DNA of 64,000 nt. It comes from an uncultured Candidatus Rokubacteria bacterium (GTDB taxonomy: Bacteria; Methylomirabilota; Methylomirabilia; Rokubacteriales; CSP1-6). This document shows positions 11,062-44,472 of the stretch, piece by piece. Positions within the stretch are counted from its first letter, which is position 1, and the number at the start of each line of letters is the position of its first letter. The notes under the pieces are model-generated. The model made no database searches. It saw nothing but the letters and a program-made list of their open reading frames with translations, and was not told the DNA's origin. The translations under genes and the position numbers were made by a program. The DNA lies in assembly GCA_963771355.1 (NCBI GenBank), contig CAVYTA010000007.1, positions 672,001 to 736,000 of the forward strand. The letters are read 5' to 3'.

Positions 11062-11143
11062 GTCCGGCGACTATAGCGCAGATTCGCTGTCTTGACGCAC
11101 TGCCGCATGGCGGCTACTCTTGGGCGCACTGGAGGGGGCCCCC

Positions 11144-22947: not shown

Positions 22948-24912
22948 TCAGCGATTGCGAAGGAGCTCGGCGATGCGCTCTTGAAGGAGCTCGGCGGCCG
23001 ACTTGGCCGGCGTGTCCGCCGGCGCGGGCTCGGCGGGCGCGGCCTTGGTCCTCGGAGCCTCGGTCCTCGGAGGCTCGCTCCGCGGACGCTCGCTCCTCGG
23101 AGGCTCCACCCGCGCGGGCTCCACCCTCACCGCCGGGGCCGACGGCGCCGCGGCGGCCACCGCCACCGGGGGCCGCTCGGCCATCGTCGCGGCCACCGGC
23201 ATGGAGCCGAGCGCCAGGCGCAGCGGCTCGGCGGCCAGGGGCCGCGCGAAGAGATAGCCCTGGCCCCGGTCGCAGCCGAGCTCCTGGAGCTGGGCCAGCT
23301 GGTCGTCGGTCTCGATGCCCTCCGCGGTGACGGAGAGGTTGAGGCTCTTGGCCACGTCGACCACCGCGCGCACGATGGCGGTGTCCTTGGCGTTCAGGGC
23401 CACGCCCTGGACGAAGGAGCGGTCGATCTTGAGCGTGTCCACCGGGAAGCGCTTGAGGTAGCCCAGCGACGAGTAGCCGGTCCCGAAATCGTCGATGGCG
23501 AGCTGGACGCCGAGCGCCTTGAGGGCGTGCAGCGCCTCCAGCGTGGACGGCGCGTCCTGCATCACCACCGTCTCGGTGATCTCGAGCTTGAGACAGGCGG
23601 GATCCAGGTGGCTCGTCGCCAGGGCGTTCTTCACCGCCAGGACGAGCCCGGGGTCCTGGAGCTGGCGCGCGGAGAGGTTGACGCTCATGGTGAGCGGCGG
23701 CTGGTGCGGGAACTGGGCCGTCCACTCCTCGAGCTGGCGGCAGGCCTCGCTGAGCACCCAGGCGCCCACGGGGATGATGAGCCCCGTCTCTTCCATCAAT
23801 GAGATGAACTCGTCGGGCTGGAGCAGCCCGCGCTCACGGTGCTGCCAGCGCACGAGGGCTTCCACCTCGATCATGCGGCCGTCGCCCAGGTGCACGATCG
23901 GCTGGTAGTGGAGGACGAACTCGCCGCGGCTCAGCGCGCCGCGGAGATCCAGCTCGAGGTCGAACCGGTTGATGGCGGGAGCGCTGCTCGCGGCGTCGAA
24001 GACCTCGAAGCGGTTCTTCCCGTTGCCCTTGGCGCGGTACATGGCCAGGTCCGCGTCGCGCAGCAGCTCCTCCGGGGTGATGGGCCGCCGGGTGTTCAGG
24101 GCGATCCCCACGCTCATGGTCACGAACACCTCGCGTCCCTCGAGCCGGAACGGCTTCTCCAGGGACTCCGTCACGCGCTGGGCCACGCTGGTGGCTCCCT
24201 CGATGCCGTCGAGGTCTTCCAGGAGGATGGCGAACTCGTCGCCCCCGAGGCGGGCCACCGTGTCTTCGGGGCGGACGCAGCCGAGCAGCCGGCGGCTCGA
24301 CTCGACCAGCACCTGGTCGCCCATCCCGTGGCCGAGGCTGTCGTTGACCACCTTGAACCGGTCGAGGTCCAGGAACAGCACCGCCACGTGCTGTGCGCGT
24401 CGCTCGGTGCGGGTGAGGGCATGCGCCAGGCGATCCATGAACAGCGCGCGGTTGGGCAGGCCGGTGAGGGCATCCTGGAAGGCTTGGCGGGTGAGCTGGT
24501 CGAGCTGCTTGGGGAAGTTGTTGATCTCCTGCGATTGCTGCTCGATCGTGCTCATCATCTTCGTGAAGGAGGCCATGAGCGTCCCGATCTCGTCGGTCCG
24601 CTCCACCGCGGTGACGTCGCCGGGCTTGGCCTCGACCACCATGTTCGCCGCGCGAGTCAGCGCGCTGCCGATGTCATAGATGATGAAGCCGCCGCCCGCC
24701 ATGAGCAACGCCATGAAGATGAGCATCACGGACACCGCGAAGAGGTCCTGCGTATGCTGGACGCGGTCCAGCAGGGGCATGAAGTACGTGTAGAAGACGT
24801 AGGCCAGGATGAGGAGCGGGATGAGGGAGGACAGGACCAGCGCCAGCCCCATCTTGTGACGGACCTGCTTCCCGCTGAACGCGATTTCCCGCTGGATGCG
24901 ATTGCTGCCCAT
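22948..24912 (-). CDS. Membrane-anchored HAMP-like GGDEF-EAL diguanylate cyclase/phosphodiesterase
   Basis: Two TM segments; DALTGLPNR, GGDEF, EAL and DDFGTGYSS motifs; Pro/Ala-rich tail. Confidence 0.93.
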   Translation of the reverse strand: MGSNRIQREIAFSGKQVRHKMGLALVLSSLIPLLILAYVFYTYFMPLLDRVQHTQDLFAVSVMLIFMALLMAGGGFIIYDIGSALTRAANMVVEAKPGDVTAVERTDEIGTLMASFTKMMSTIEQQSQEINNFPKQLDQLTRQAFQDALTGLPNRALFMDRLAHALTRTERRAQHVAVLFLDLDRFKVVNDSLGHGMGDQVLVESSRRLLGCVRPEDTVARLGGDEFAILLEDLDGIEGATSVAQRVTESLEKPFRLEGREVFVTMSVGIALNTRRPITPEELLRDADLAMYRAKGNGKNRFEVFDAASSAPAINRFDLELDLRGALSRGEFVLHYQPIVHLGDGRMIEVEALVRWQHRERGLLQPDEFISLMEETGLIIPVGAWVLSEACRQLEEWTAQFPHQPPLTMSVNLSARQLQDPGLVLAVKNALATSHLDPACLKLEITETVVMQDAPSTLEALHALKALGVQLAIDDFGTGYSSLGYLKRFPVDTLKIDRSFVQGVALNAKDTAIVRAVVDVAKSLNLSVTAEGIETDDQLAQLQELGCDRGQGYLFARPLAAEPLRLALGSMPVAATMAERPPVAVAAAAPSAPAVRVEPARVEPPRSERPRSEPPRTEAPRTKAAPAEPAPADTPAKSAAELLQERIAELLRNR

Positions 24913-27006: not shown

Positions 27007-27085
27007 GACCCCGTCGTCTAGCCTGGCCAAGGACGCGACCCTTTCAAGGTCGAGATCGCGGGTTCGAATCCCGCCGGGGTCACCA
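27007..27085 (+). tRNA. tRNA-Glu(UUC)
   Basis: Acceptor GACCCCG/CGGGGTC, anticodon arm CGACC-CTTTCAA-GGTCG, T arm GCGGG-TTCGAAT-CCCGC, encoded CCA. Confidence 0.97.
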
Positions 27086-27737
27086 CCGCAGTTGGTACGA
27101 CCTTCCCGGGCAGGAGCGGCTCCCAAGAGCCCTGCCCGGTGAAGCGATAGCCACGGCGTCCATCCTTCTCGAAGGCCTCGCACGTTAGGCGTCCCACTAT
27201 CAATTTCCGTAGGATCTGGCGCGTTTGCGGCACATGCCGGCCGAGCAGACCCTTAACGTCAGAGGCGCGCGCAACGAGTTCTCGTTCTAGCTGTTTACCG
27301 TCGAGTAAGGCGACCTTCGCGGCCTGCTGAAGTGCCTCCAACTCGCCGATGAGGGTCTTCTTCCTTGTGTCTTCAGTCTTCAGCCTCGAGAAAAGAGATT
27401 CGTTGCGCTCACCCCTGGCGACGGCATCCACCAGGTTGCCAATGTGTGTTTCGAGAAGAGATAGCTCACGCTCGATGGCGGCTCGTCGATCCTGGAAGCG
27501 GTCCTGACCGCCTCTCAGCCGTTGCAGAGCTTTCTCGACCGCCCGAGCCAAGATCCGTTCGTCCAAGGCATCAGCGATCGCCTGGAGTACCACCTGATCA
27601 AGACCCTCCTGATGGATCAGGAGGGAGTTCTGGCAGATTGTCCGCCCACGCTTGTGGTAACGGTCGCAGCCATAGAGCGCCTTGCGCCCGCGCTTGAAGT
27701 CCCTGGTGATCCCGACCAAGGCTCCCAGCAAGTACAA
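27018..27737 (-). pseudogene. Large serine recombinase C-terminal half (zinc ribbon and coiled coil), 5' truncated, reading through att into antisense tRNA
   Basis: YGCDRYHKRGRTICQN zinc-ribbon part, coiled coil, GYRFTG..VVTPAGFEPA. Confidence 0.8.
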
Positions 27738-27953
27738 GCGCTGACCCGCCGCGAAGCGCTACCGGCACTCGCCGGCCGGTGACACGGAACGTCGGGCCCT
27801 CGACGGCCGGCATCCAAGAATCGACACGTTCTCTGTCGATCGACTGAGCGCGCCGCGTTCTTTTCAGCCATTTAGACGCCGCCGCCGGTGGCACCAAGGT
27901 TGCTCCTCTGACGTGAGGGTTTCCGTGCCTGGACCACGGGCAGGAGAGAGGGG

Positions 27954-28169
27954 ATGACGATGGACGGCGAGATCAAGCGAGAGGCGGCGTTCGCGGGGCA
28001 GCGGGTCAAGCAGAAGGTCGTCTTCGCCCGCGCCCTCTGCTCGGTCATCCCGCTCCTCGTCCTGGCCTACGTGTTTTACGGCAACCTCGTGCTGTGCCGT
28101 CGGCTCCTGGGACGGCCGGTCTGGGATTTCTCATCGGGTGACACGCGTGCCACCGTGGCAGCCGCCTAG
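27954..28169 (+). pseudogene. N-terminal stump paralogous to the GGDEF-EAL protein at 22948-24912
   Basis: IKREAAFAGQRVKQKVVFARALCSVIPLLVLAYVFY vs IQREIAFSGKQVRHKMGLALVLSSLIPLLILAYVFY. Confidence 0.65.
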
Positions 28170-28273
28170 CGCGGCGCGTCGAAGTAAACACGGTGATCTT
28201 TATCGCAATGTGCTGTGGCAAGAACTTGTTGCGCTACCGCGATCGATTCGACAGTAGTAGAGGAGGTCCCGAA

Positions 28274-30331
28274 ATGGCCACGCAGTCCTTGTTGCGGTCT
28301 TCCCGAAGTGCCTTCGCCGCATTGGCAGTGCTTCTCGTCGTTACGGTACTGCCGCTGCACGTCCCGGCTGTTGAAGGGGCGGAGCCCGTCGTTCCTGCTC
28401 AAGGTTCTGCTGATGGCACGCCCTCACCGACTTCAAGAGGTCACGGGCGCGGTGTGATCCGCACGGTAGGAGCGGCTCGCACCGCGAGCCGCCACATCCT
28501 CGTGCAGCTGCATCCGCGCACCGACGAGATGCGGTTCATGCAGGACGCCCACGCCCAAGGCTTGCGCCGGCTGAGCCGTGTGTATGGCACGACGTGGCTC
28601 AGGATGGCTGTCCCGGCGGGAGCCAATCCCGCCCAGGCAGCGGCGGCGGCCCGAACGCTGCCGGGCGTGTTGCGAGCCACGCTGGACTCTGTGGTGACGA
28701 TCAACGACCAGATTCCTCCTCGAGATCCGATCTACAAGAATGACGACGATCCCTCCACGAAGCCATGCGACCCGCTCCTCGAGATCTGTGACCCCTGGAC
28801 GTTGGTCGACCAGTGGGGTCTCTTCAAGGTTGAAGCAGAGACTGGATGGGTCGTCCAACGCGGCGGGCCGGGCGTCGTCATCGCCATCCTCGACAGCGGA
28901 ATCGACCTCGACCATGACGATCTGTGGGCGAAGCTCTGGACGAATCCGGGCGAGGTTCCCGGTAACGGGATCGACGATGATGGCAATGGCCTTGTCGATG
29001 ACGTGCACGGGGCCGATTTCGCCGGCAGCAATGTCGGCGGTCTGTTCGATGACCCTGGCTCCCAGGATGGGAATCCGGATGTTCCGATGGGAGGCGCGTG
29101 GGTCGTGGACCCGACGGCGACGTTCGGGATTCGTTTCGTCGGCGATGCGGCCGCAGGCGACGGGGACGACAACAACCTCGACGGGTTGATTGATATCGGC
29201 GTCACTCACGGAACATTCGTGGCGGGGATTGCCGGTGCCATGACCGACAATGTCAATCCCCAAACGCTTCAGGCCGAAGGCATGGCTGGTGCCTGCTGGC
29301 ACTGTAAGCTGATGCCGGTGCGCATGATCAATGCCGAGGGCTGGGCTTTCGGCTCGGATGCAGCCTCGGCAATCTATTACGCGGCGAACATGGGCGCCCA
29401 TGTCATCAACATCAGCTGGGGCATCGACCTCAGCGGGGCCGATCCGTCCGAGGTGGAGGCGATCCAGGTCATAGCTGACGCCATCGATTTCGCCGCAAGC
29501 CGCGGGGTGATCGTGGTGGCGGCAGCGGGAAACAGCGGCACGGCCGGCCTGCACTTTCCCGCCATCATGAAGAATACGATTGCGGTGGGAAGCTCCAACT
29601 GGCTCGATCGACGTTCTGCCTTCTCCAGTCACGCCGTTCCGGCCGAGATTCCCGATAACGGTCTCGATGATGATGGGAACGGCTGGGTGGATGACGTGCT
29701 CGATGTCGTCGCTCCCGGAGAGCTGATCTGGAGCACTGCCGTCTTGAGCGCGTACGACTCGCTGCTTTACGAACTGCTCGGTCTACCGGGGCTGGAGCCG
29801 GGGACGGACACGTATGGAGCGGCGGATGGCACGTCGTTCTCCACCCCGCTCGTGTCGGGTTACGTGGGGCTCCTCCTCTCACAGAATCCGGGAGCGACGC
29901 TGCGCCAAGTGCGGCAGGCCATCCGCGCGAACGCCCGGGACCTCCTCGACCCGCAGGGCGTTGGGGCTTCGCTGGTGGGATACGATGCCTACTCCGGTTT
30001 CGGGCGGCTCCGCATGGTCGTGACCACGCTGACCCCGGAGCCGAACGCGCCTCCTGTTGCGAATGCCGGCCCCGATCAAGCTGTCTTCGTCAAGGGCAAG
30101 GCGGTGGCCTCAACGGTGACGCTCGATGCTTCGGGCTCGCATGACCCGGATGGCACGCTTGTCTCTTACCAGTGGCTTGAGAACGGCGCTCAGATCGCTA
30201 CGGGGAAAACGGCAGCAGTGAGCCTCGGGATCGGCTCTCACACGATCACGTTGCGAGTGACCGACGACGATCAGGCAAGCAGTGAAGATCAGTTGACCGT
30301 TGATGTCAACAAGCGCGGTGGGAGGAAATAA
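28274..30331 (+). CDS. Secreted subtilisin-like S8 serine peptidase with C-terminal PKD-like domain
   Basis: Signal peptide; triad ILDSG, HGTFVAG, GTSFS; oxyanion AAGN; DDDGNG Ca-binding repeats; LDASGSHDPDG..SYQW. Confidence 0.92.
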   Translation: MATQSLLRSSRSAFAALAVLLVVTVLPLHVPAVEGAEPVVPAQGSADGTPSPTSRGHGRGVIRTVGAARTASRHILVQLHPRTDEMRFMQDAHAQGLRRLSRVYGTTWLRMAVPAGANPAQAAAAARTLPGVLRATLDSVVTINDQIPPRDPIYKNDDDPSTKPCDPLLEICDPWTLVDQWGLFKVEAETGWVVQRGGPGVVIAILDSGIDLDHDDLWAKLWTNPGEVPGNGIDDDGNGLVDDVHGADFAGSNVGGLFDDPGSQDGNPDVPMGGAWVVDPTATFGIRFVGDAAAGDGDDNNLDGLIDIGVTHGTFVAGIAGAMTDNVNPQTLQAEGMAGACWHCKLMPVRMINAEGWAFGSDAASAIYYAANMGAHVINISWGIDLSGADPSEVEAIQVIADAIDFAASRGVIVVAAAGNSGTAGLHFPAIMKNTIAVGSSNWLDRRSAFSSHAVPAEIPDNGLDDDGNGWVDDVLDVVAPGELIWSTAVLSAYDSLLYELLGLPGLEPGTDTYGAADGTSFSTPLVSGYVGLLLSQNPGATLRQVRQAIRANARDLLDPQGVGASLVGYDAYSGFGRLRMVVTTLTPEPNAPPVANAGPDQAVFVKGKAVASTVTLDASGSHDPDGTLVSYQWLENGAQIATGKTAAVSLGIGSHTITLRVTDDDQASSEDQLTVDVNKRGGRK

Positions 30332-30369
30332 GGATCCAAGGCTCGAGGCCTTGACGGCTCACCGATCAC

Positions 30370-30570
30370 GACCGCCTGACGCCGACTTCTGTCCGGAGCG
30401 CGGCGCGAAGCTCGCGGTTGGCTGCGTCGGGTGTGGACCACGACCACGAACGTTGCCCGACACAAGTTCTGCAAGAAGTGCGGCAAACCTTTGGGCAACG
30501 CCGTCGACGCGGGGCGGGCTCCCGGGACGTCGCCATCGCTAGAGGGGTATGTCCCCAAGCAGGAGCAACA
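30370..30570 (+). pseudogene. Double zinc ribbon stump of an adenylate cyclase-type gene
   Basis: DADFCPERG..CVGCG and HKFCKKCGKPL..YVPK, resembling the N-termini of the cyclases at 11144 and 33521. Confidence 0.55.
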
Positions 30571-30876
30571 GACGAATGGATCTCCAATGCAGAAGATCTA
30601 CGAGGTGCTCAGGGAACTTCAGCGGGGCATGTTTTAGTGGCGTGCTGTGTTCGAGGTGGCGGTGCGCAGAAAGCTGCTGAGACATTTGGTGAAAACGTGG
30701 CCGTGACTGAAACACGGATTCCATCCGGATCTCGAAGCTGAACTCGAGGGACCTGTTCGCCTGCAAGTGGTTGCGGGCCCCCGCAACCATGCAAACTGAC
30801 CGACTACTGCCGAGACGCCCGCGTAGCTGGTTTGCTGACGATCACATAGCCCATTGGGGAAGGGACCTCGTGGCGC

Positions 30877-31089
30877 TCAGGCCGCGAGCGCGACGCCTTC
30901 GATGCAAAACGTTAGCGATGCGTTCCAACCCTCGGAATAACCCCCCGGGGTCACCACCTTATTAGCAGCGGGTGTCGCCAAGATGAGCCGCTCGATTCCA
31001 GCCTGCCCCGTGAAACGGTAACACCGGCCGGCGTCATCTTCCTCCGGCATGAGGATGATTCGTCCCTTAACAGGCGCATCACGCAGCAT
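30877..31089 (-). pseudogene. Serine recombinase 3' fragment spanning the second att core
   Basis: GRIILMPE..YRFTGQ..VVTPGGYSEGWNASLTFCIEGVALAA*. Confidence 0.75.
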
Positions 31090-31243
31090 CGCTGGTGCAG
31101 ATCCGTTACGGAGACGAAGCCGCCATCACCGACGTCACTCGAGCGAAGCCGGTGATGCCGACGCCGCAGCAGACCGATCAGGGCGCGCGGCGGCCGCCGG
31201 AGATTCGCCCGCAGGATAGTCGAGCGGCCTGCTGGGTCGCGCG

Positions 31244-33521
31244 TCAGCGCTCGCCGACGACGAAGTGAAGACCGGCCAGCTTGAGGCGGATCGCGTCCCG
31301 CTGGTGCGGGCGGACGGCATCGGCGTGGGCGGTGGCCAGCTCCAGCGCGCTCTGCAAGTGGCTGATCGCCTCCGGGTTGGCGCCCGATGAGCACGGCGCC
31401 GTCGGCGGCGGTCAACAGGTAGGGCAGCGCCGCGATGGCCCGATCGCTCCGAACCCAGTGGTGGGCGAGCTGGTCGCAGACCTCCTCGGTGCGGCCGCGA
31501 TACAGCGACTCGATCGTCTCCGCAGCCCGCCCGTGACGCGTCTTGCGGTCGGCCTGGAGTAGCGTGCCGTAGGCCACCTCCTGGGTCAGGACGTGGTGGA
31601 AGCTCAGCATGGCAATGCCGCCGCCGGCCTCTTGATCGAGGAGCCCGCGGCGCTCGAGCAGCGCCAGGTCCTCGTCGAACTGCTCGCCCGGCGTCAGCGC
31701 GCGCAGGTGCGCCAGCAGGAAGCGCTTGCCGAGCACCGCCGCGTCGGCGATCAGGTCGCGCGCGGAGGGCGACAGGCGGTCGATGCGCGCCGCGATCAGC
31801 GCGTGCAGGGTAGGCGGTACCACGGCGGCAGCGTCCGCGGTCAGATCGTAGGCGCCGTCGGCGAGGACGAGGCCGCCGCGCTCCCGGAATGCCCGGACGA
31901 GCTCCTCGGCATAGAACGGGTTGCCCTGTGCCCGCTCGGCCACGGCCCGGCGCAGTCTCTCGCGCGCCGGGTAAGGATCGAGCTGGGCATCCACCAGCGC
32001 CGCGATGTCGTCGGACGCCAATGACCGGAGCCGAATCTCCCGGACGCCGGCCACCTCGAGGCAACTGCCGGCGAGCGGCAGCCGCGACGTCATGAGCAGG
32101 AGCAGCGGAAGCTCGCGCGCGACCGTGGCCAGCCGACGGCACAGGTCCTCCGACGATGGATCGAGCCAGTGGACGTCCTCGAGCAGCACCAGGCGCGGCG
32201 CCTGACGGCACTCGGCTACCACCCACGCGACCAGCGCCTCCTGCACGCGGTCGCGACGCCCGTCGGCCGGCGTGTCGCGCAGCATGGCGGACGTCTCGCT
32301 TGATGTCCCCAGGATCGGCAGGACATCGGGCACGTAGGCCGCCAGGTCGGGCGACAGATCCCACAGCCGCCGGTGCAGCGCGTCGCGAGCGGCCGCAAGA
32401 TCCCCGTCCGGCGACAGCGCAGCCAGCTGTCGCAGCAAAGGCCGGAAGGCGAAGTAGGCGGCTCTGCGCGCGTACGCTTGCGCGGCGCCCTCGACCGGTG
32501 GCGGCAGGCCGAGGTGGCGTTGCAGCTCGTAGGCGAGCCGGGACTTGCCGATGCCGGGCTCACCGACCAGGCAGATAGCGTCACCACGGCCGCTGGCGGC
32601 GCGTTCCCAGGCCTCGCCGAGCACGGCGAGCTCCGTCTCGCGGCCGCGGAAGGGGGAGACCCCACGCCGGAGCGAGGCTTGCAGGCGCGAGACGACCGTG
32701 CCTTCACCGTCGAGCACGAAGGCCTCGACCGGCTCGGCGGCCCCGCGGACGCGCAGCGCGCCGAGCGGTCGCACGCGGAAGTAGCCCTCGACGAGCCGGT
32801 GGGTCGGCGACGCCAGCAGGATCGAGCCCGGATCGGCGGCCTGTTGCATGCGGGCGGCGAGATTCGTCGTGAGCCCCTGCGCGGTGTAGTCCATGCGCAG
32901 GTCGTCGCCGATGGCACCGACGACGACGGGGCCGCTGTTGAGGCCGAGCCGGACCTGGATGCCGAAGCCCTTGTCACGCCGCAGCCGGGCGGCGTGCTCG
33001 GCGAACCCGCGCTGGATCTCGAGTGCCGCCTGGCACGCGCGCCGCGCGTGGTCCTCGTGAGCGATCGGCGCGCCGAAGAGCGCCATGATCCCGTCGCCTG
33101 TGAACTGGTTGACCGTGCCCTCCCAGCGATGCACGGCGTCGAGCATGATCTGGAAGGCGCCGTCCATGACCATGTGGAAGTCTTCGGCGTCGAGGGCTCC
33201 GGCCAGCTCGGTCGAGCCCTGCACGTCGACGAAGAGGACGGTCACCTCCTTGCGCTCGCCGCGAAGCGCGCGTCCCTCGGTCAGGATCCGCTCGGCCAGG
33301 TGACGCGGTGTGTAGGAGGCGGGCGCGCGGACGACGGCGGGGTCGACGGTAATGGGGGCAGAGGGGCCGACGGACAGCGCCGTGCCGCAGGCGTCGCAGA
33401 AGCGCGCGTGGGGACGCTGGCCCTTGCCGCAGGCCGGGCAGCGGGCCTCGAGGGCGGCGCCGCACCCGTCGCAGAAGTGGGCGCCCTGGCGAAGATCCTG
33501 GGCGCAGGCGGGGCAGTTCAC
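31244..33521 (-). CDS. Double zinc ribbon - class III cyclase - AAA ATPase protein with short TPR tail, frameshift near 31385
   Basis: Four CxxC pairs; VTVLFVDVQGS, TNLAARMQ and GEPGIGKS motifs; continues ANPEAISHL..VGER* in another frame. Confidence 0.82.
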
Positions 33522-33537
33522 GCCGGGGCGGCGACGA

Positions 33538-34089
33538 TCACTCGTCGCGGAGCGCCGTGTTGGCCAGGGTCGTGAAGATCGTGTTGAACACGCAGAACGC
33601 GGCGAAGCCGATCATCTCGCGGACGTCATCGGGCGTGAGGCCCTGGGCCTCCATCTCGCGGAAGTCCTTGGGCTTGACGTCCATCGCGTCCAGCGCGAAG
33701 CGCAGCACGTACCGCACGAAGGCCTGTTCCCGCTCGGGGAGCGGCAGGGCGACCGGGTTGGCACAGATGCCGTCCAGCGCGGCCTCGTCGAAGCCCAGCG
33801 CGATCAGGCCTCGGCGCGAGGAGCCGAAGCAGCCGGTGCACCGCCGGGCGTGGGCCACCAGCATGAACGCGAACATCCGGGCCTCCCAGGAGAACCTCGA
33901 GCGTCCGGAGCGCTGGTTGAACAGATTCGCTTCGGCGGTCACCTGGGCCTCGAGGATCCAGGGCGTTGACACGTACGCGAGCCGGCTCTCGGGTACCGTC
34001 GTGATGCCGCGCAGCCGCTTCAGCTCGTCCAGCCAGTGGCACGCCGCGGGCGGGATGTCCTCTTCCTTGGGAAGGTCGAAGAATGCCAT
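33538..34089 (-). CDS. AhpD/carboxymuconolactone decarboxylase-like protein, paralog 2
   Basis: LVAHARRCTGC motif, ERE..VRYV and CVFN; near-duplicate of its neighbour. Confidence 0.7.
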   Translation of the reverse strand: MAFFDLPKEEDIPPAACHWLDELKRLRGITTVPESRLAYVSTPWILEAQVTAEANLFNQRSGRSRFSWEARMFAFMLVAHARRCTGCFGSSRRGLIALGFDEAALDGICANPVALPLPEREQAFVRYVLRFALDAMDVKPKDFREMEAQGLTPDDVREMIGFAAFCVFNTIFTTLANTALRDE

Positions 34090-34092
34090 CGG

Positions 34093-34641
34093 TCAATCCT
34101 CGCGCAGCGCCGTGTTGGCCACCGTGGTGAAGATCGTGTTCATGAGAGCGTGGGCGGCGCAGCCGGCGATCTCCTGCACATCGGTCGGGGAGAAGCCCTG
34201 GGCCTGGAGCTCGCGGAAGTCCTTGGGCTGGAGCTCGCTGGGATTGGTCGCGATGCGAAGCACGTACTTCACGAACAGGCGCTCGCGCTCCGGCAGAGGG
34301 AGCACGGACGGATTGGCGCAGAAGCCGTCGAGCGCCGGCTCGTCGAAACCCAGCTTGGTCAGGTGTCCGCGCGAGGCGCCGAAACAACCGTCGCACCGCC
34401 GGGCGTGGGCGACGAGCATGAAGGCGATCATCCGGGCCTCCCAGGAGAACGCCGACGGTTCCGATGGCCTGAACAGGCTCGCTTCGACGGTCACGCGGGC
34501 CTTGAGGATCTGCGGAGAGGGCGCGTACGTCACCCAGCTCCGCGGCAAGGTGTCGACACCGCGCAGGCGCTTGAGCTCGTCCAGCCACTGGCGCGCCTCG
34601 GGAGAGATGTCCTCGTCCCTGGGGACGTCGAAGAAAGCCAT
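34093..34641 (-). CDS. AhpD/carboxymuconolactone decarboxylase-like protein, paralog 1
   Basis: MAFFDVP start; LVAHARRCDGC motif. Confidence 0.7.
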   Translation of the reverse strand: MAFFDVPRDEDISPEARQWLDELKRLRGVDTLPRSWVTYAPSPQILKARVTVEASLFRPSEPSAFSWEARMIAFMLVAHARRCDGCFGASRGHLTKLGFDEPALDGFCANPSVLPLPERERLFVKYVLRIATNPSELQPKDFRELQAQGFSPTDVQEIAGCAAHALMNTIFTTVANTALRED

Positions 34642-34808
34642 GGGGCACACTTCCTTCCGGCTGAGTACCTGACGATAGATCACGCCTCCGTGCCACGCAA
34701 GTACCGCGGCCGCACACGAAAGCCGATTGACTGCAATCAGCGGCACGGTTCCCCAGACGACCACCGTGCGCACGCGCCCGGGGACACGGGTTTGTCGAGC
34801 TGCCGGCA

Positions 34809-34940
34809 CGCGTCGCGATCACGCCGGGCCGCGGCCTTCCGCTGGCGGCTCCGGGCGGCCCGGCACCGGGCGGAGCAGACCTTTTGGCGGGCGTGGATCG
34901 GGGCCGTCCGGCACACCGGGCACGTACGGGAGGCTAGCAT
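34809..34940 (-). repeat. Copy D of zinc-finger micro-ORF (3' truncated)
   Basis: MLASRTCPVCRTAPIHARQKVCSARCRAARSRQRKAAARRDRDA. Confidence 0.8.
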
Positions 34941-35009
34941 GGCGCCACGCAAGGGAGACCGACCATCGGGGAGCCCCTCCGCACAGCTAGGCAACGCGGA
35001 TAACTCCGG

Positions 35010-35475
35010 CCGGAAGATGCGCTCGACGATGGGAGCCTGCTCCGGGTCCACCACGCGGGCGACGTGCTCGCGCGTGCCGTCCGGGCCCAGCACCGGTTCG
35101 TTGCGGTACCGAAGATCCGCCCGCCGGTGACGTGCCGCGCCCGCGCTTTCCTCAGCATCGCGTCCCGGGTCCGCTGCCGTGCCTTCTCGCGCTCGAGTTC
35201 GTCGGCGAAGCCGGCCACGGACATCAGCAGCTTCTCGGTGGGGGAATCGATCGTGCGCTCGCGGTCCTCAGAGGTAGAGGAACACGCGCACGCCGCCCTG
35301 GGTGAACTGTTTCAGGGCATAGGCGGTCTCGATCTGCTCGCGCCCCAGGCGGGACTCCTCCGACATAGATGAGCACCTGGAACGACGGCCGCGGCTTGAG
35401 CGCATTCATGAGTCGGAGGAATCCGGGGCGCGTCGTGAACTCCGCCCCGCTGATCCCGTCTTCGGCGCAGACGTG
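35010..35475 (-). pseudogene. Large serine recombinase N-terminal (resolvase and start of recombinase domain) remnant, multiply frameshifted
   Basis: Across frames: DGISGAEFTTRPGFLRLMNALKPRP, EESRLGREQIETAYALKQ, ELEREKARQRTRDAM, EQAPIVERIF. Confidence 0.8.
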
Positions 35476-35585
35476 GGCGGGGTCCTTGCGCGACGCCTGC
35501 GTTACCTTTCAGTTGGCTATATGCTGGCGTGTCGCGGTACACTCCGGTCGCCGTTCCCAACTGCCCACACAGAGGAGAGCGCCTA

Positions 35586-36555
35586 ATGCGGCACTGGCGA
35601 GCAGCGTTTGCAGCTTTGGTCATCCTAATTGGCTCCGCCCTCCCTGCGGTCGCCGCTGAGGGAGATCCTAGTGACGATCTCCCGGTGCCACCAGACGTTT
35701 CATTCAGCGTTGGGACACGCGCTTGGTGGACGAGTGGCTATTCGGAATGGAGTCATCAGTGTTCCAAGGCACTAATCCACTTTCCGAACTTCGCTGGCGA
35801 GGGATTGACGCACTCATTCCTGAAGTTAACGCTGACTTCGCGTGGAAGCTTCTCGTGTTGAGAGCCGCAGCTGGGTGGGGCAAGAGCGAAAACGGGGTCT
35901 TAATCGATGAGGACTTTCTCCTTGATGACCATAATGGGCGCTTCTCTGTTTCTCGGTCTAGTGTCGAGAGCGACATTTTCTACGCGAACGGGGATGTCGG
36001 CATCCGCGCTTACCGCTGGATCAGTACGGATGGGCGGCTCGGCTTTTTCGACTTCCTCGGAGGCTATCAATACTGGCGAGAAAATACGAAGCTTTTGGAT
36101 CACAGGCAGCTTAGTTTACCCCCTCTCCCGACGCCCATTGCGCCGCAAGGCACCAAGGTGCTTACAGAGAAGTTCACCTGGCAGAGCCTCCGCATTGGCG
36201 CTCGGTACCAGGTTCCGTTTCCGAAGGGCTTCGGCTTTAGGGCGGAGGCCATGTTTATACCGTGGTCGCAGTTCGAATTTGAGGACATTCACCATTGAAG
36301 GACTGACTTGCGCCAGGATCCGAGCTTCCTCGCGAAAGCGGAGGGAGGTTTCGGCGTTCCAGGCCGAAGGAGCAATCAGCTACACGATCTGGAAGGGGTT
36401 TTCCATGGAAGGCGGCTTCCGGTACACGAAAATCAGATTCAGGGCGATGGCGACATAGAAGTTCGGACTGTATCCGGCACAGCTGAGACAGAAGTTTGAA
36501 GGTGCGAAAGACGGAGCGGTACGGCCCGTTTGTCGGCCTTCAGTATCGTTTCTGA
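35586..36555 (+). pseudogene. Outer-membrane beta-barrel (omptin-like) gene with frameshifts and an internal stop
   Basis: Signal peptide, SELRW..DEDF, amphipathic strands, C-terminal GLQYRF; visibly AT-richer. Confidence 0.55.
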
Positions 36556-36560
36556 GTAGT

Positions 36561-36726
36561 CTATGCAACCGCGACTCCGGCCAGCGTGAAGGCGAGGAAT
36601 TCCTCAGCCGGTACAGCGGCACCGCCCGGGGTCACCACATACGTTGGAACCATCGTTCCCCGGTGAAGCGATAACTCCGCTGCCCGTCCTTCGCGAAGGC
36701 CTCGCACGCTAGGCGTCCCACTATCA
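36561..36726 (-). pseudogene. Serine recombinase 3' fragment spanning the third att core
   Basis: Nucleotide match to 27136-27202 (CCCGGTGAAGCGATA; GAAGGCCTCGCACGnTAGGCGTCCCACTATCA); VVTPGGAAVPAEEFLAFTLAGVAVA*. Confidence 0.8.
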
Positions 36727-36892
36727 CGTCGTCGGACCAAGGTCCTATTGCCGGCCCGTGAGGGACGCGCGTTAATTTCACAGGTCGAGCGCGCAGCCCG
36801 AGACCTCAGGGAGGACGACATCATGGGAGTTTTCATGATCGACCCGATGTTGAGCAATTCACATAACACTCACGTTGGTTGAGGAGGCCGTT

Positions 36893-37297
36893 ATGATCGT
36901 TCGGCTCGTCATGCTGGTGTTCGGCGTGCTGCTCATGTGTATTAGCCCGGCCTCTGGCCAGATCAAGAGCCCAGATGTCGTCGGGACCTGGGTGGGGGTT
37001 CTTGAGCTAACGGGCGACAAGAGCCCGGTCGAGGTTGAATTCAAGTCGGATGGAGGATTCGGAGGTAGTGTCAAGACCGCGAAGGAGGGTCTCGTGCGGT
37101 ATAAGGGGGGGTGGAAGATCGAAGGGGCCAACGTCCTTGTGGACTACGTGGCTGACGCTGCCACAGGGACCGCAAATGTGCCGGCCACGGTGGCGAGTTC
37201 GTGGACCTTGACGATGCTCCAGGGCAAGTCCTTGAGCGGATTCGGTATTCGGAAGTCAGACAATCTTCAATACGACGTCAAATTGAACAAGAAGTAG
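36893..37297 (+). CDS. Hypothetical secreted beta-rich protein
   Basis: GAGGAGG RBS, signal peptide, VVGTWVG motif. Confidence 0.65.
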   Translation: MIVRLVMLVFGVLLMCISPASGQIKSPDVVGTWVGVLELTGDKSPVEVEFKSDGGFGGSVKTAKEGLVRYKGGWKIEGANVLVDYVADAATGTANVPATVASSWTLTMLQGKSLSGFGIRKSDNLQYDVKLNKK

Positions 37298-37474
37298 CTG
37301 AAGGTGGTGGAGGCGTCACAACCTCCACCACTCGCAGCGCTGCTGTGTGGGAAGGTGCCACGCGACGGCAAAGCTCGGTAGACACTTAGGCGATACGGAC
37401 GACGCCCCTGATGGTCTGAGGTCGCGGGGTGAAGGGGACAAAACGCCCCGGGGTCACCACGCCTTTCCCGTGAC

Positions 37475-37578
37475 GATAGGCAACATAAACGCCCTCCGGA
37501 GGGAGGATAGGCAACATGAACGCCCTCCGGCGGCGGGCGCCCCTGGCTTGGGTCCCGTCACCGTGCTTGGGTCCCGTC
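37475..37578. repeat. Two pairs of short direct repeats
   Basis: GATAGGCAACATRAACGCCCTCCGG at 37475 and 37506; GCTTGGGTCCCGTC at 37546 and 37565. Confidence 0.85.
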
Positions 37579-37733
37579 CCCGGGACATAACCTGCCAGAC
37601 CCGGACGCTGGCCGCCCCAGGAGCCGACGGCACAGCGACGATCTCCTCCGGCCCCACGCGCAGCACGAGGTGCTGGAGGCCGGTGCCGTCCCAGCTCTCC
37701 CAGCGCGCGACGGTGGGGCCGCCCGCGACGCGC

Positions 37734-38186
37734 TCAGCCACACCCCGGGCCCTGCTTCAGGAGCGCGGATGCGGCTGCGCGGGTGGTTCGGCCCAGCGTC
37801 CCCACAAGGAGCCGGAGCCGATCGCCGTCGACTGGCTTCGTCAAGTGATACGGGAAGCCCGCCGCCTGCGCGGCCGCGCTCGTCGAGCCGGGTGGCAAGA
37901 GGACGATGGCCGGCGCCTCGCGCCCGCGGCGAAAGTGCAGGTACTGGAGGCGGCGCAGGAGGTTGCCGCCACTTGCCCAAGCCACCGCGCTGTCGCACAC
38001 GATGAGGTCCGCCGCCTGGGTGACCGCGAGCGCGTCGATGACCGAGGTCGCGGTGACCAAGGCGCCCGCGAGTCCCAGCACCTCTCGCAGGAAGTGGCGG
38101 CAATGCTCATCGTCCCCGACGATCAACACGTGCATCCCCGCGAGCTCCTCGATCGTCCTCTCTCCGCCGACGTGGTGTGCCATCAC
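37734..38186 (-). CDS. Degenerate response-regulator receiver protein
   Basis: HVLIVGDD, DLIVCD, PAIVL and HLTKPVD motifs. Confidence 0.6.
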   Translation of the reverse strand: MMAHHVGGERTIEELAGMHVLIVGDDEHCRHFLREVLGLAGALVTATSVIDALAVTQAADLIVCDSAVAWASGGNLLRRLQYLHFRRGREAPAIVLLPPGSTSAAAQAAGFPYHLTKPVDGDRLRLLVGTLGRTTRAAASALLKQGPGCG

Positions 38187-39918: not shown

Positions 39919-40896
39919 CTACTCGATCACCTGATCCGCCCGCGCCAGCACCGACGGCGGGATCGTCAGGCCGAGCGCCTTCGCGGTCTTGAGGTTGATC
40001 ACCAGCTCGAACTTGGTCGGCTGTTCTACGGGCAGGTCGGCGGGCTTTGCGCCCCTGAGAATGCGGTCGATGTACCCGGCGGCACGCCGCAGCATATCGA
40101 CGAGGCTCGCGCCGTACGCCATTAGGCCACCCGCCGTCACGAAGTCCGCGCTCTCGTAAATCGCGGGGAGACCGATCTCCGAGGCGAGCTGCGCGATGCG
40201 CCGGCGCTCCAGCCAAAACATCGGATGGGGATGGACAAGCAGCGCCTCCGGCCGCGCGGCGCGCGCTGCCGCGAGGGCAGCGCCGATCTCGCCCGGCTGC
40301 CGAGCGATGAAGAGCTGGATCCCCAGGCCGAGCCGGGCAGCTTCGCGCTCGATCTCCCGATGCTTTTGGGTTGCGAGGGCGGCAACTCTCCGGAGCCTCG
40401 GCACGGTGTCCTTGAGCAACTGAAGCCGCTTGCCCGTCAACTCGCCGGTTAGATGACTGAAGCCTGTGATGTTCCCGCCAGGCCGCGCCAGGCTCGCAAC
40501 CAGGCCGGCCTCCTCGGGATCGGCGACCGCGACGAACACCACCGACACCGTAGTGGTCACCTTCTTGAGAGCCTCGGCGAGCTCGTTCGAGGCGACTATG
40601 GCGACATCGACGTTCTGCCCGACCAGGTCCCTCGCCGCATGCAGCATCTCCTCGCCCCCGCTCACGGCGCAGCGCGGTACAACGACGTAGTTCTGCTCCT
40701 GGACGTACCCGAGCTCGCGGAGCCCGCCCCGCAGCGCGAGCACCGCGGGAGTAGGGGAATCGATGCCGCAGCCGGGCGGCAGGCCGGGGACGAGGAGTCC
40801 GATCCGCCAGACCTTCCCCGCCGGCTGCGCCTCGGCGGCGCGCGGCGCGGCGAGGAGACTACCTGGGATCATTGCCAGGAAGGTGCGGCGCTCCAT
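39919..40896 (-). CDS. Orphan ABC substrate-binding protein
   Basis: MERRTFL, SLARPGGNITG and ADQVIE* motifs. Confidence 0.9.
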   Translation of the reverse strand: MERRTFLAMIPGSLLAAPRAAEAQPAGKVWRIGLLVPGLPPGCGIDSPTPAVLALRGGLRELGYVQEQNYVVVPRCAVSGGEEMLHAARDLVGQNVDVAIVASNELAEALKKVTTTVSVVFVAVADPEEAGLVASLARPGGNITGFSHLTGELTGKRLQLLKDTVPRLRRVAALATQKHREIEREAARLGLGIQLFIARQPGEIGAALAAARAARPEALLVHPHPMFWLERRRIAQLASEIGLPAIYESADFVTAGGLMAYGASLVDMLRRAAGYIDRILRGAKPADLPVEQPTKFELVINLKTAKALGLTIPPSVLARADQVIE

Positions 40897-41037
40897 CACG
40901 GGTGCTCCCTCAGCTTCTCCAGTGCCGTCTCGAGCAGCCCCCGGATCTCCGCGTCGCGCTCCCGCCGGGCCGCGGTCTTCCGCTGGCGACTTCGGGCCGC
41001 CCGACACCGGCCGCTGCAGACCTCCTGGCCGCCATGC
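40896..41037 (-). repeat. Copy C of zinc-finger micro-ORF (5' truncated)
   Basis: HGGQEVCSGRCRAARSRQRKTAARRERDAEIRGLLETALEKLREHP*; TGATG overlap with the SBP start. Confidence 0.8.
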
Positions 41038-41192
41038 TAGCGCGCCCGCTGCGCCACGGCTAGCGCACCGGCGAGCGCCGAGGGGCCGGAGTCGCGCCTG
41101 CCTTTTGGTGGCGGCTCTGCCAGAACTCTACGATTAGCGGTCTGGCGCTCGCCGATCCAGCGGGGTTTTGGGGTAGACTCGGGGGAATACGC

Positions 41193-42455
41193 ATGATTGC
41201 AGTGTTCCTCGGCGGCGTCCTCCTCAGCGTCGTGATCCTTTTCGCCTTGGTCGTGTGGTCGATTCGCCGTCACCGCGACCCCGACCTGCACATCGAATGC
41301 GACTCACGCATCGATCAACTGATCCCCACGCTCGCGGGCTTGACGCTGGGGACGGCGGTCGCCGGCAACACGGCGGAGGTGCTCGAGAACGGCGCCTTCT
41401 TCGATGTGCTGATCGGCCGTATCCAGGCGGCGCGAGAATCCGTGCACTTCGAGACCTTCCTGTGGAAGGAGGGGACCCTGGGCCGTCGTGTCGCCGATGC
41501 TCTGATCGACCGAGCGCGGGCCCGAGTGAAGGTGCGGGTCCTGCTGGACGCCGAAGGCTCCAAGGGCGCCGGGACGAGTGTCGTGCAGCAGATGCGTGAC
41601 GCGGGCTGTCGCGTGGTGTTCTTCCACGACCGGAAGATTCGAAACATCGGCGTGTTCAACGACCGCGACCACCGGAAGCTGGTGGTCATCGACGGGCGCG
41701 AGGCCTTCGTGGGCGGCCACTGCATCGTGGACGAGTGGCTCGGCAATGCGGAAGACGGCAAGCACTATGCGGACATCAGCCTCCACTTGCACGGGCCCAT
41801 CGTGCACACCGTGCAAAGCGCCTTCAGCGAGAACTGGGCCGGCGAGACGGGCGAGCTCTTCGTGGGGGACGACGTCTTCCCGGCGTTGGCGCCGGCGGGC
41901 GACATCCTCATGCATGCCGTGTTCGCCAAGCCAGAGAACTCGGCGCCCGCGGTCAAGATCCTGCACCACACCGCGATCTGCCTGGCGCGCAGCCGCATCT
42001 GGATCCAGAATCCCTATTTCATCCCGGAGCCCGACGCCATCGATGCCTTCGGCGAGGCGGTGGCCCGCGGGGTGGACGTGCGAGTCCTGATGCCTTCGAC
42101 CAGCGGCTCGGACAACCCCATGGTCCAGCACGCCGGCCACCGGAACTTCGAAAAGCTGCTGCGTTGCGGCGTTCGCCTGTTCGAGTACCCGCACACCCTG
42201 CTGCACCAGAAGGTGATGACCGTCGACGGCGTCTGGAGCGCCATCGGCTCGAGCAACTTCGACGACCGCTCGTTCGAGACGAACGACGAACTCACCCTCT
42301 CAATCCGGGACGAGGCGCTAGGGCGGCGGTTCGACGCGATCTTCGAAAAGTATGTCGCGCGGGCGTCCGAGATCGAGCTCGAGCGGTGGCGCAAGCGGGC
42401 GCTGTCGCACAGGCTCACGGACCACTTCTTCTATGCGCTGAACGAACTTCTTTGA
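41193..42455 (+). CDS. Cardiolipin synthase-like phospholipase D
   Basis: Two HKD motifs (HRKLVVID, HQKVMTVD); NPYFIP and GSSNFD. Confidence 0.9.
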   Translation: MIAVFLGGVLLSVVILFALVVWSIRRHRDPDLHIECDSRIDQLIPTLAGLTLGTAVAGNTAEVLENGAFFDVLIGRIQAARESVHFETFLWKEGTLGRRVADALIDRARARVKVRVLLDAEGSKGAGTSVVQQMRDAGCRVVFFHDRKIRNIGVFNDRDHRKLVVIDGREAFVGGHCIVDEWLGNAEDGKHYADISLHLHGPIVHTVQSAFSENWAGETGELFVGDDVFPALAPAGDILMHAVFAKPENSAPAVKILHHTAICLARSRIWIQNPYFIPEPDAIDAFGEAVARGVDVRVLMPSTSGSDNPMVQHAGHRNFEKLLRCGVRLFEYPHTLLHQKVMTVDGVWSAIGSSNFDDRSFETNDELTLSIRDEALGRRFDAIFEKYVARASEIELERWRKRALSHRLTDHFFYALNELL

Positions 42456-42526
42456 CCGACACGAACATGCCGTCGCGATTGGCCGCGGTAGATAGTCACC
42501 GATCACCAGGAACGCGCGGCGGTCCA

Positions 42527-43498
42527 TCACTCGATCACCCGATCCGCTCGTAGCAAGAGCGACGGCGGGATCGTCAGGCCGAGCGCCTTGGCGGTCTTGA
42601 GGTTGATGACCAGCTCGAACTTCGTCGTCTGTTCCACGGGCAGGTCGCCCGGCTTCGCCCCCTTTAGAATTCTGTCGACATAGTAGGCGGCCCGCCGGAA
42701 CATGTCAGGAAAGCTCGGCCCATAGGCCATGAGACAACCATCGACTACAAAGGTGCGCTCTTGGCACACTGCCGGGAGCCGACCTTTCGCCATCAGCCTC
42801 AGGATCGTCGTCCGGTGAGCGGCAAAGAGCGGTGACGCCAGTTGGATGACCGCTTGGGCACGCTGCTGCCTGGCGGCTTCAAATGCTCGCTCCAGGTCCT
42901 GCTCCCCTCGCACCTCGAGGACTTGCAGGATGAGCCCCAACGATGGGGCTACCCGCTCGACAGCCTTGACTGCGTTTGGCCTGACCGAATCCCACAGCAC
43001 AGCCACGCGGCTGACCTCCGGAATAGCCTCCCTCAACAGTTGCAGTCGTTTGGTTACTAGCTCGGAGTCTTGAAAGGAAAGTCCGGTGAGGTTTCCGCCC
43101 GGACGCGCGAGGCTGGTGACGAAGCCCTGTTCAACCGGGTCCTCAACGATGGCCATGACAATGGGAATCACGCTGGTGGCGCGCTGAGCCGCACGGATCG
43201 CATGCGGACCCGAGGTCACAATGACGTCAGCCTTAAGCCCGACTAACTCAGCCGCAAGGCCGGGAAACCGCTCTGGCTTGCCCTCGCCCCATCGATACTC
43301 AATAGCGATGTTTTGGCCCTGCACGTACCCGCGTTCACGCAATCCTTCGCGAAATGCCGTGAGCCAGGAGGACATGAGGGAGGAGGTGGCGGTCCCGAGG
43401 AGACCTATAAGGGGAACCTTCCCCGCCGGCTGCGCCTCGGCGGCGAGCGGCGCAACAAGCAGCGCGGCAGCACCAGCCAGGAGCGCGCGGCGCTCCAT
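42527..43498 (-). CDS. Orphan ABC substrate-binding protein (array member 3)
   Basis: MERRALL, SLARPGGNLTG and ADRVIE* motifs. Confidence 0.9.
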   Translation of the reverse strand: MERRALLAGAAALLVAPLAAEAQPAGKVPLIGLLGTATSSLMSSWLTAFREGLRERGYVQGQNIAIEYRWGEGKPERFPGLAAELVGLKADVIVTSGPHAIRAAQRATSVIPIVMAIVEDPVEQGFVTSLARPGGNLTGLSFQDSELVTKRLQLLREAIPEVSRVAVLWDSVRPNAVKAVERVAPSLGLILQVLEVRGEQDLERAFEAARQQRAQAVIQLASPLFAAHRTTILRLMAKGRLPAVCQERTFVVDGCLMAYGPSFPDMFRRAAYYVDRILKGAKPGDLPVEQTTKFELVINLKTAKALGLTIPPSLLLRADRVIE

Positions 43499-44472
43499 CA
43501 CTCGATCACCTGATCCGCCCGGTGCAGGAGCGACTGCGGGATCTTGAGGCTGAGGACTTTGGCGGTCTTGAGGTTGATGACCAGCTCGAACTTGGTGGGC
43601 TGCTCGATGGGAAGGTCGGCGGGTGGCGCGCCCTTGAAGATTCTGTCCACGAAGCTCGCGGCGCGACGATAGTGGTCAGGATAGTTCACTCCGTAGACGA
43701 TCAACCCCCCGGCGAACTCCATGGATGCGTATATCGCCGGCAGGCGATGCTTTGCCGCAAGGTCAACGATGACCCGCTGATTCGCCTGCGTGAGGGAGTC
43801 AAGCCCCACCACGAGCACATCTGCACGCTGCCTGATCGCGCTGTCGAACGCCGGCCCCAAATCTTCAGGCTTTCGCACATCGAGAAGCTGAGGGTGGATC
43901 CGCAGGGATCGCGCCGACGTCTCGACCTCTCTCCACGACGGTGGGATGGACGGGTTGCTCATGTTGAAGAGGGCGGCGAGTCGTACGGCTCGCGGAACGA
44001 GTTCCTTGAGCAGGTCGACCCGTTTCGCGTATATGTCCGTTACCTGGGCGCTTAGCCCGGTGATATTCCCGCCCGGGCGCGCGAGGCTCGCGACGACGCC
44101 CTGCCCTACCGGATCGCCAATCCCCGCCATGACCACGGGAATCGTCGCCGTGGCATTCTTGGCCGCCAGGGCCGCTGGCGTCCCCCTCGTCACGATTAGG
44201 TCCACCTTCAACCGAACCAACTCCGCCGCCAGGCTCGGGTATCGCTCGTCGCGGCCGTCGGTCGATCGGTACTCGATGACGAAGCTTTTCCCCTCAACGT
44301 ATCCAAGGTCCCGCAGTCCCTGTCGGAAGCTATCGACGTTGGCGGCATTTATCGCCGTTGATGTCCTCTCGAGCATGCCGATGCGATAGAGCTTCTCTGG
44401 ATGCTGCGCCTCGGCGGTGCGCGGCGCGGCAATCAGCGCGGCAGCACCAGCCAGGAACGCGCGCCGGTCCAT
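43498..44472 (-). CDS. Orphan ABC substrate-binding protein (array member 2)
   Basis: MDRRAFL, SLARPGGNITG and ADQVIE* motifs. Confidence 0.9.
   Translation of the reverse strand: MDRRAFLAGAAALIAAPRTAEAQHPEKLYRIGMLERTSTAINAANVDSFRQGLRDLGYVEGKSFVIEYRSTDGRDERYPSLAAELVRLKVDLIVTRGTPAALAAKNATATIPVVMAGIGDPVGQGVVASLARPGGNITGLSAQVTDIYAKRVDLLKELVPRAVRLAALFNMSNPSIPPSWREVETSARSLRIHPQLLDVRKPEDLGPAFDSAIRQRADVLVVGLDSLTQANQRVIVDLAAKHRLPAIYASMEFAGGLIVYGVNYPDHYRRAASFVDRIFKGAPPADLPIEQPTKFELVINLKTAKVLSLKIPQSLLHRADQVIE

Follow-up and report, generated by a model that had tools for sequence, protein, structure and literature searches.

Trimmed genomic island remnants with serine recombinase stubs behind a tRNA-Glu gene in a Candidatus Rokubacteria genome

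We describe a tandem array of three or four trimmed island remnants lying behind a transfer RNA (tRNA) gene, tRNA-Glu, in an uncultured Candidatus Rokubacteria bacterium (GenBank assembly GCA_963771355.1, here G000; 99.77% complete). The array occupies part of a 64,000-nucleotide (nt) stretch of contig CAVYTA010000007.1 (positions 672,001 to 736,000), which we call the window and whose own numbering is used below. Islands were probably inserted here one after another at the 3' end of the tRNA gene and then trimmed by deletion, leaving behind the 3' stubs of large serine recombinase genes and a variety of cargo. A preliminary description of the window had proposed an integron-like site at which non-autonomous cassettes are moved in trans by a serine recombinase. 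Our analysis upholds accretion at a tRNA gene by a serine recombinase, arrays that differ between congeners and the movement of truncated units, but not uniform cassettes. The array clearly illustrates the accretion and decay of islands and the gathering of accessory genes at tRNA-Glu in these bacteria.

The units are delimited by four exact direct copies of a 13-bp core, all on the plus strand (Table 1), each consisting of the last 12 nt of tRNA-Glu(TTC) followed by one C. One hundred shuffles of the window gave a mean of 0.13 copies and a maximum of one. Core-to-core spacings are 3871, 5681 and 822 bp, matching the units of about 3.9, 5.7 and 0.8 kb first reported, here numbered 1 to 3 from the tRNA; tandem units bounded in this way by copies of a tRNA 3' end are the layout of the DsiB-type tRNA-gene islands discussed at the end. 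Guanine plus cytosine (GC) content falls to 56-65% across most of units 1 and 3 and distal unit 2, in a genome near 70%, and is 67-74% in the cyclase/AhpD block of unit 2. The variable region continues past core 4, synteny with a related genome (G002) returning only at about 46,900, and the 12 nt that follow core 4 are probably the last trace of a fourth unit, judging by their match to the flank of a G002 core.

All three units start with a 3' stub of a serine recombinase gene. Stub 1 reads through core 1 and stops on the antisense strand of the tRNA; it is 87% identical to residues 335-569 of the full-length relative P0001, and its zinc ribbon falls just under the cut-off (PF13408, E 4e-5). 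The DNA of stub 2 is 80-82% identical to two attachment (att) arms in genome G006. The earlier statement that only the 3' end of the gene is present holds for the starts of the units, but unit 2 also contains a frameshifted N-terminal piece. That piece lacks the first 41 codons, the position of the catalytic serine among them, and its best match is a different protein from that of stub 2. The window thus holds three 3' stubs and one frameshifted, dead piece, and no intact recombinase gene, as had been suspected. Nor was an intact member of the family found elsewhere in G000 by two Pfam searches and a six-frame family profile: PF07508 and PF00239 gave zero matches at E 0.001, and the profile returned only the window pieces and one stub on contig C6. 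The resident trans-acting enzyme that an integron-like platform would need, and for which a genome-wide search for an intact paralogue had been suggested, was not encountered in this genome.

Table 1. Features of the array and its surroundings, in window coordinates
Feature	Position	Strand	Remarks
tRNA-Glu(TTC), integration target; 3' end gives the core	27007..27085	+	ARAGORN
Stub 1: 3' 235 codons of a large serine recombinase, unbroken; zinc ribbon, coiled coil, C-terminal hairpin	27018..27725	-
Core 1, tRNA-side junction, attL-type	27074..27086	+
Captured chromosomal fragment: end of one gene and start of a GGDEF-N-terminus-like gene	27717..28092	+
Cargo block common to G002, there at another locus behind a different recombinase stub	27717..30518	.	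99.1% identity
S8 subtilase with C-terminal PKD domain, unit 1 cargo	28193..30331	+	PF00082 E 6e-43
Foreign attachment arm with copy of tRNA-Met(CAT) 3' end (30778-30789)	30605..30790	.
attP-side tail 1 with core 2 (30945-30957); 26 codons in register, end VALAA-stop	30877..30957	-
Stub 2: about 48 codons, different recombinase subfamily	30958..31101	-	39% to P0037 residues 506-560
Class III adenylate/guanylate cyclase, double zinc ribbon and AAA domain	31225..33521	-	Pfam
Tandem AhpD/CMD-like gene pair (33538-34089, 34093-34641)	33538..34641	-
N-terminal recombinase piece, frameshifted, residues 42-204	34974..35484	-	unit 2
Omptin-family outer-membrane gene, broken over several frames	35586..36555	+
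attP-side tail 2 with core 3 (36626-36638); 25 codons, end VAVA-stop; like tail of intact P0003	36561..36638	-
Stub 3, 29-bp deletion near core relative to G006	36639..36802	-	residues 484-547 of full-length relatives
140-aa protein, hydrophobic N-terminus, probably secreted, unit 3 cargo	36875..37297	+	93% DNA identity in G006; weak TIGR03066 match
attP-side tail 3 with core 4 (37448-37460); 24 codons, end VRIA-stop	37386..37460	-
12 nt identical to flank of internal G002 core (at 18902)	37460..37471	+
Dispersed 115-135-bp repeat, first 31 bp duplicated, enriched in island regions	37472..37637	+

Full-length relatives of the stubs are proteins of about 570 amino acids (aa) carrying PF00239, PF07508 and PF13408. 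P0001 itself (569 aa) has resolvase, recombinase and zinc-ribbon domains, and the database search returned 69 relatives; Y6, R8 and S10 are invariant in an alignment of relatives (A2), as in large serine recombinases, and the predicted fold matches solved large serine integrases (E 1e-21). Against the model for CcrB, P0001 scored 94 bits, the cut-off being 900. Related loci are labelled Rokubacteria, Nitrospira and Acidobacteria, and full-length enzymes were found in G002 and G119, the latter with a second recombinase about 4 kb from the intact gene. Matches to stub 1 in 36 of 61 relatives cannot be read as prevalence, many of them covering the tRNA-antisense end only. In a scan of 114 open reading frames (ORFs) from 12 loci, the neighbours of intact relatives included terminase and capsid genes (L089), a tail tape measure gene (L088) and primase/helicase domains (L090, L044, L051); going by these neighbours, the parent elements include prophages and small replicative islands. 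Searches of titles and abstract openings returned no paper describing the family or its tail, although the same searches missed PMC3146451 and absence from print is not thereby established; the family is not mentioned in the whole text of PMC12424338, nor in the available parts of PMC12884075 and PMC11476347.

The attachment site lies inside the recombinase gene. The minus-strand frame stays open across every core: past core 1 it runs into tRNA antisense sequence and stops there, and at cores 2-4 it is extended by 24-26 codons that belong to the preceding unit's distal end. Among the database relatives, 58 of 69 have tRNA-type C-terminal ends by pattern, and 28 of 63 intact genes (fetched loci with duplicate ends removed, scanned for tRNAs only) end across an ARAGORN tRNA: 18 Glu, 7 Arg, 1 Ala, 1 Leu and 1 Ser. 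Both forms of one gene are represented: over residues 257-551 L116 matches P0013 at 99% identity, and at the core it switches to a non-tRNA tail. The gene is a reverse-strand integrase whose 3' end overlaps the att site, as in DsiB-type islands. Its attP therefore falls within the final ~20 codons, and the existence of two gene forms suggests that integration swaps the tail.

Several comparisons indicate that the tail of the free form is conserved as protein. Among 35 non-tRNA 12-mer cores, drawn from the relatives' regions and the window with none filtered out, 15 yield a tail of 15-30 residues ending in A, V, I or L and then A, a pattern chosen after the tails had been seen, many of them from one genus; as controls, one of 135 chance cores in G000 showed the pattern, and none of the 35 cores gave it in any other frame. 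In register, a stop lies 15-30 codons after the core in 28 of 35 cases, against 9 and 0 in the other frames. Intact genes without a tRNA call have an Ala-type end in 11 of 35 cases, compared with none of the 28 tRNA forms and 151 of 4291 long ORFs, and six of the seven viral-contig genes in this non-tRNA set have it (one more was removed because its tRNA-form end was a duplicate). Single-base codon differences among 14 tails of 22 residues, in pairwise counts that are not independent, were 291 synonymous and 175 non-synonymous. Stubs could not be matched one by one to their own tails, since an intact gene within an array can take over the tail of its neighbour.

C-terminal ends of the Ala-Ala or Val-Ala type can serve as ClpXP degrons. 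The host has a clpX gene scoring over the cut-off, and its transfer-messenger RNA (tmRNA) tag ends in ALAA, as does tail 1; the hydrophobic, Ala-Ala-type free-form tail is, as a sequence pattern, a candidate ClpXP degron that integration would remove. Alternatively the tail may have a structural role, as a folding strand lost on integration: the predicted fold places a strand at 564-571 in the free form (predicted local distance difference test score about 62), with the tRNA-form tail disordered. Should the tail act as a degron or as a folding strand, the level or the direction of the integrase would be set by integration itself. Extending this to the whole locus gives a tRNA-anchored accretion platform with a switch, in which the free integrase is Ala-degron-tagged, integration strips the tag, later arrivals re-tag the older neighbour's integrase, and incoming intact enzymes shuttle stub-bearing units between species as passengers; we consider this complete scheme speculative and rather improbable.

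Comparison of the tRNA-Glu locus across genomes, which the preliminary description had recommended, revealed arrays that differ between congeners; shared pieces do not, however, have fixed unit ends. G006 has seven exact cores, with further degenerate ones, over 45 kb behind the same tRNA, accompanied by stubs of mixed length. G002 has three cores on a contig syntenic with the right flank of the window, with different cargo, and one of its units (7.5 kb) bears a 558-aa gene holding all three domains. Among 41 tRNA-Glu(TTC) sites with at least 1.8 kb of downstream sequence (five shorter ones were dropped), 11 match the family, comprising one intact gene, one full-length but frameshifted gene, eight stubs and one core only, and 30 are without a match. 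The eight tRNA-proximal stubs have eight different starts (profile positions 245, 338, 389, 462, 469, 484, 504 and 515), which argues for sequential integration and deletion rather than designed cassettes. The sequence directly after CCA varies widely between genomes, suggesting that recognition by the enzyme may rest mostly on the tRNA half of the target; it could then insert again at an occupied site. In contig C9 of G006, at cores 865,163 and 859,652, adjacent units have nearly the same stub type as the tRNA-proximal unit, and insertion would therefore have occurred at a site already holding the enzyme's own arm.

The trimmed pieces themselves have travelled. Unit 3 recurs in G006, where stub and cargo are joined at the same point and identity is 93-94%, against 71-85% for backbone segments; the match starts exactly at the core and stops at 37336, short of the distal arm, and G000 has 29-bp and 199-bp deletions and the G006 core a 1-nt insertion. 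The whole unit 3 cargo was present only in G000 and G006 among the 183 genomes searched. The block of unit 1 shared with G002 compares with a backbone of 86-92% and has there a different right flank as well as a different stub, the two junctions of the S8 block being about 16 nt apart. In unit 2, 31225-34712 (cyclase/AhpD) is 95% identical to G001, and most of the block is 84% identical to G119 and G122. Whole units 1 or 2 were not found in other genomes of the 183, only sub-blocks. No discrete cassette with fixed ends was seen to recur elsewhere, since shared pieces differ in their distal ends or stubs. These identities indicate that trimmed pieces moved recently between species, as ragged blocks and not as core-to-core cassettes. 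Like cis-mobilisable elements, the units lack an integrase of their own and keep att sites, and pieces of them are shared with other species; an adjacent intact island is a putative vehicle.

We consider it probable that these observations reflect a tandem stack built as follows. Each new island would recombine at the tRNA-side junction, restoring the tRNA and pushing older units outward, and would leave a core between successive units. Deletions would then remove the 5' part of the integrase gene and most of the island, locking cargo in place; they would leave a 3' stub of random length and could fuse neighbouring units. Trimmed pieces would have moved between species later, most likely carried along by an adjacent intact island (cis-mobilisation). 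In G000 the stack is now probably inert.

A number of points weigh against this explanation. Unit 3 has the same stub-to-cargo junction in G006, with identity from the exact core edge, and decay in place alone cannot explain its high identity on a more divergent backbone. The near-identical left junctions of the S8 block could mean a preferred end and not random deletion. For serine integrases, joining a new island to an attL-type junction, as we propose here, is not known as a canonical reaction. The genomes compared represent other species, not strains of the same species, and the frameshifts, read from the assembly alone, could include assembly errors, which the truncations cannot.

There are three alternatives. 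Under the first, the stub att sites are inert fossils, and pieces spread by homologous or homology-assisted recombination among island regions (through repeats, cyclase paralogues and stubs) and not by a serine integrase. The ragged ends of the shared blocks and their presence at other loci would fit, as would a region rich in dispersed repeats and paralogues and an S8 block that begins inside a captured chromosomal gene end; yet the shared blocks in G002 and G122 again adjoin a recombinase stub and core, the identity of unit 3 begins precisely at its core, and a backbone divergence of 10-25% would, on general knowledge, limit homologous recombination. We judge this explanation unlikely.

The second is the original proposal of dedicated non-autonomous cassettes, in which an intact serine recombinase acting in trans would excise and insert single cassettes on an integron-like platform. 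The cores are exact and none of the three internal junctions has lost its attP-side arm, unit 3 is shared with G006 starting at the core, the arrays of congeners differ as a whole, full-length enzymes exist in G002 and G119, and Ccr recombinases excise recombinase-less tandem cassettes (PMC11470126). Uniform cassettes are nevertheless contradicted by stub breakpoints that all differ, by shared units without both ends in common (unit 3 in its distal end, the unit 1 cargo in both stub and right flank) and by broken genes and a dead catalytic piece inside units. That no intact enzyme was found in G000, and the whole unit 3 cargo in only two of the 183 genomes searched, counts further against it, and the proposal is in our view unlikely. 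The third, chance repeats or mis-assembly, is scarcely credible: four more exact 13-mers do lie elsewhere in the 5.5-Mb, 70% GC genome and everything is read from an assembly, but the window exceeds shuffled expectation in its cores, every core has a stub and an in-register tail beside it, and the layout recurs in other genomes.

The unrelated cargo first listed (an S8 protease; a cyclase, an AhpD-like pair and an outer-membrane protein; a secreted protein) was recovered in full, with the outer-membrane protein gene frameshifted. Unit 1 is a mosaic: its captured chromosomal fragment is 87-91% identical to G101 and G104, where both genes continue, its GGDEF-like start resembles the ORF at 22948-24912, and a foreign arm lies near its distal end. 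Homology of the unit 2 cyclase to its relatives breaks off near 31225-31248. The two AhpD/CMD-like proteins fell below the TIGR01926 cut-off, with high confidence from Atlas; the omptin-like gene was assigned with similarly high confidence by Atlas, its recognition lying below the tool's threshold. As first noted, phage, conjugation and replication families were absent above the Pfam cut-off among the 19 window ORFs scanned, none of which matched ParB or Mom families either. Past core 4, 39919-44703 holds at least three paralogous ATP-binding cassette (ABC)-type substrate-binding-like genes, named by inspection, with a phospholipase-D-like gene (41193-42455) within the run. A stretch of ~130 bp with a small Cys-rich motif (weak DUF2116 match) lies at 34809-34942 and 40950-41029; it has about nine copies in the genome, at least one of which adjoins an ABC substrate-binding-like gene.

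The dispersed repeat has about 20 full or partial copies in G000, about seven in the G006 array and three in the G002 array (contig C15), and a partial inverted copy lies at 28091-28117. Captured chromosomal gene fragments at 27717-28092 and 37637-37741 abut the repeat at both places, which suggests that it marks recombination junctions. It contains two ACATAA-like half-sites, which we take to be reminiscent of XerD sites. Eight same-orientation copies lie behind tRNA-Met(CAT) on contig C7 of G000 (765,861-797,163), five of them spaced 1.5-2.8 kb. Compared with the tRNA cores, the repeat is the better candidate for an integron-like system, and it may mark the limits of gene cassettes. The same tRNA-Met(CAT) has a second array (C7:761,833-782,030) with four copies of its 3' end, and the foreign arm inside unit 1 carries a further copy. 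Another tRNA-Glu, of anticodon CTC, lies near the end of contig C5 (997,131-997,206), and a stub of the same family with a matching core lies at the start of contig C6 (4,920-5,360), followed 6 kb further on by a tail-1-like arm with a damaged core (11,011-11,112); these C5 and C6 pieces are probably a second decayed stack.

Arrays of this kind may be under-catalogued, since the 2014 Islander survey (PMC4383910) left serine integrases out as not known to target tRNA genes. The word 'tRNA' never occurs in the main text of Durrant 2023 (PMC10083194). Intact family members are candidate tools for insertion at a conserved tRNA end.

Several known systems share features with the array, and the statements on published ones below follow the portions of each source available to us. 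Integrons are likewise a growing stack of unrelated cargo at one site; unlike them, the array has no resident integrase of its family and no attC-like palindrome at unit ends, and its units are multi-gene mosaics with integrase debris. In tycheposons of Prochlorococcus (bioRxiv 10.1101/2020.12.28.424599) and in the accretion of streptococcal integrative and mobilizable or conjugative elements (IMEs and ICEs; PMC5357655), new elements enter at the tRNA end and push older ones outward, leaving fragmented integrases and partial tRNAs as here, although tycheposons mostly use tyrosine integrases (910 of 937 elements) and the text available on them mentions no attP within the integrase gene. An attP inside the integrase gene, with the C-terminus swapped on integration, is known from IntP/IntX of myxophage Mx8 (PMC6070905) and from serine integrases of streptococcal rumA ICEs (PMC4701971); the Mx8 protein is a tyrosine enzyme that loses 112 residues, whereas about 20 residues are exchanged here for tRNA-antisense sequence, and the rumA target is a protein gene. 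In mycobacteriophage BPs, too, attP lies in a gene and integration removes a C-terminal degradation tag (PMC3694055), although there a repressor has a tested tag and here an integrase has an inferred one.

Staphylococcal cassette chromosome elements (SCC and SCCmec, with CcrAB/CcrC) are tandem serine-recombinase cassettes at one site, and a neighbour's enzyme excises recombinase-less ones (PMC11470126). The trimmed units described here would most likely move in the same way; the array is not itself an SCC, its target being a tRNA gene and not rlmH and no intact enzyme being present in it. By analogy of layout, the closest precedent is the ssrA islands of Dehalococcoides (McMurdie et al. 2011, PMC3146451). 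Of these, 15 of 31 have no integration module, and accretion was proposed to make them cis-mobilisable; the authors also suggest that the DsiB gene may be whole only in the circular form or when it lies behind a neighbouring island. Differences are that the target is tRNA-Glu and not tmRNA, that the core is 13 bp and not 20, that the six-gene module was not recognised beside the intact relatives scanned here, that stubs alone remain in this array, and that the free-form tail is conserved as protein, DsiB C-termini being reported as divergent. In both systems, nonetheless, islands follow a stable-RNA gene in tandem, with short copies of the 3' end of that gene between them, and both have a reverse-strand serine integrase (DsiB ~540 aa) with a 3' end overlapping attL; in layout the array works like the DsiB islands, though with its tRNA target it is not an ssrA island proper. 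It is a decayed example of a known island-accretion design, in which integrase-less tandem members have already been proposed for Dehalococcoides and shown for SCC-like cassettes.

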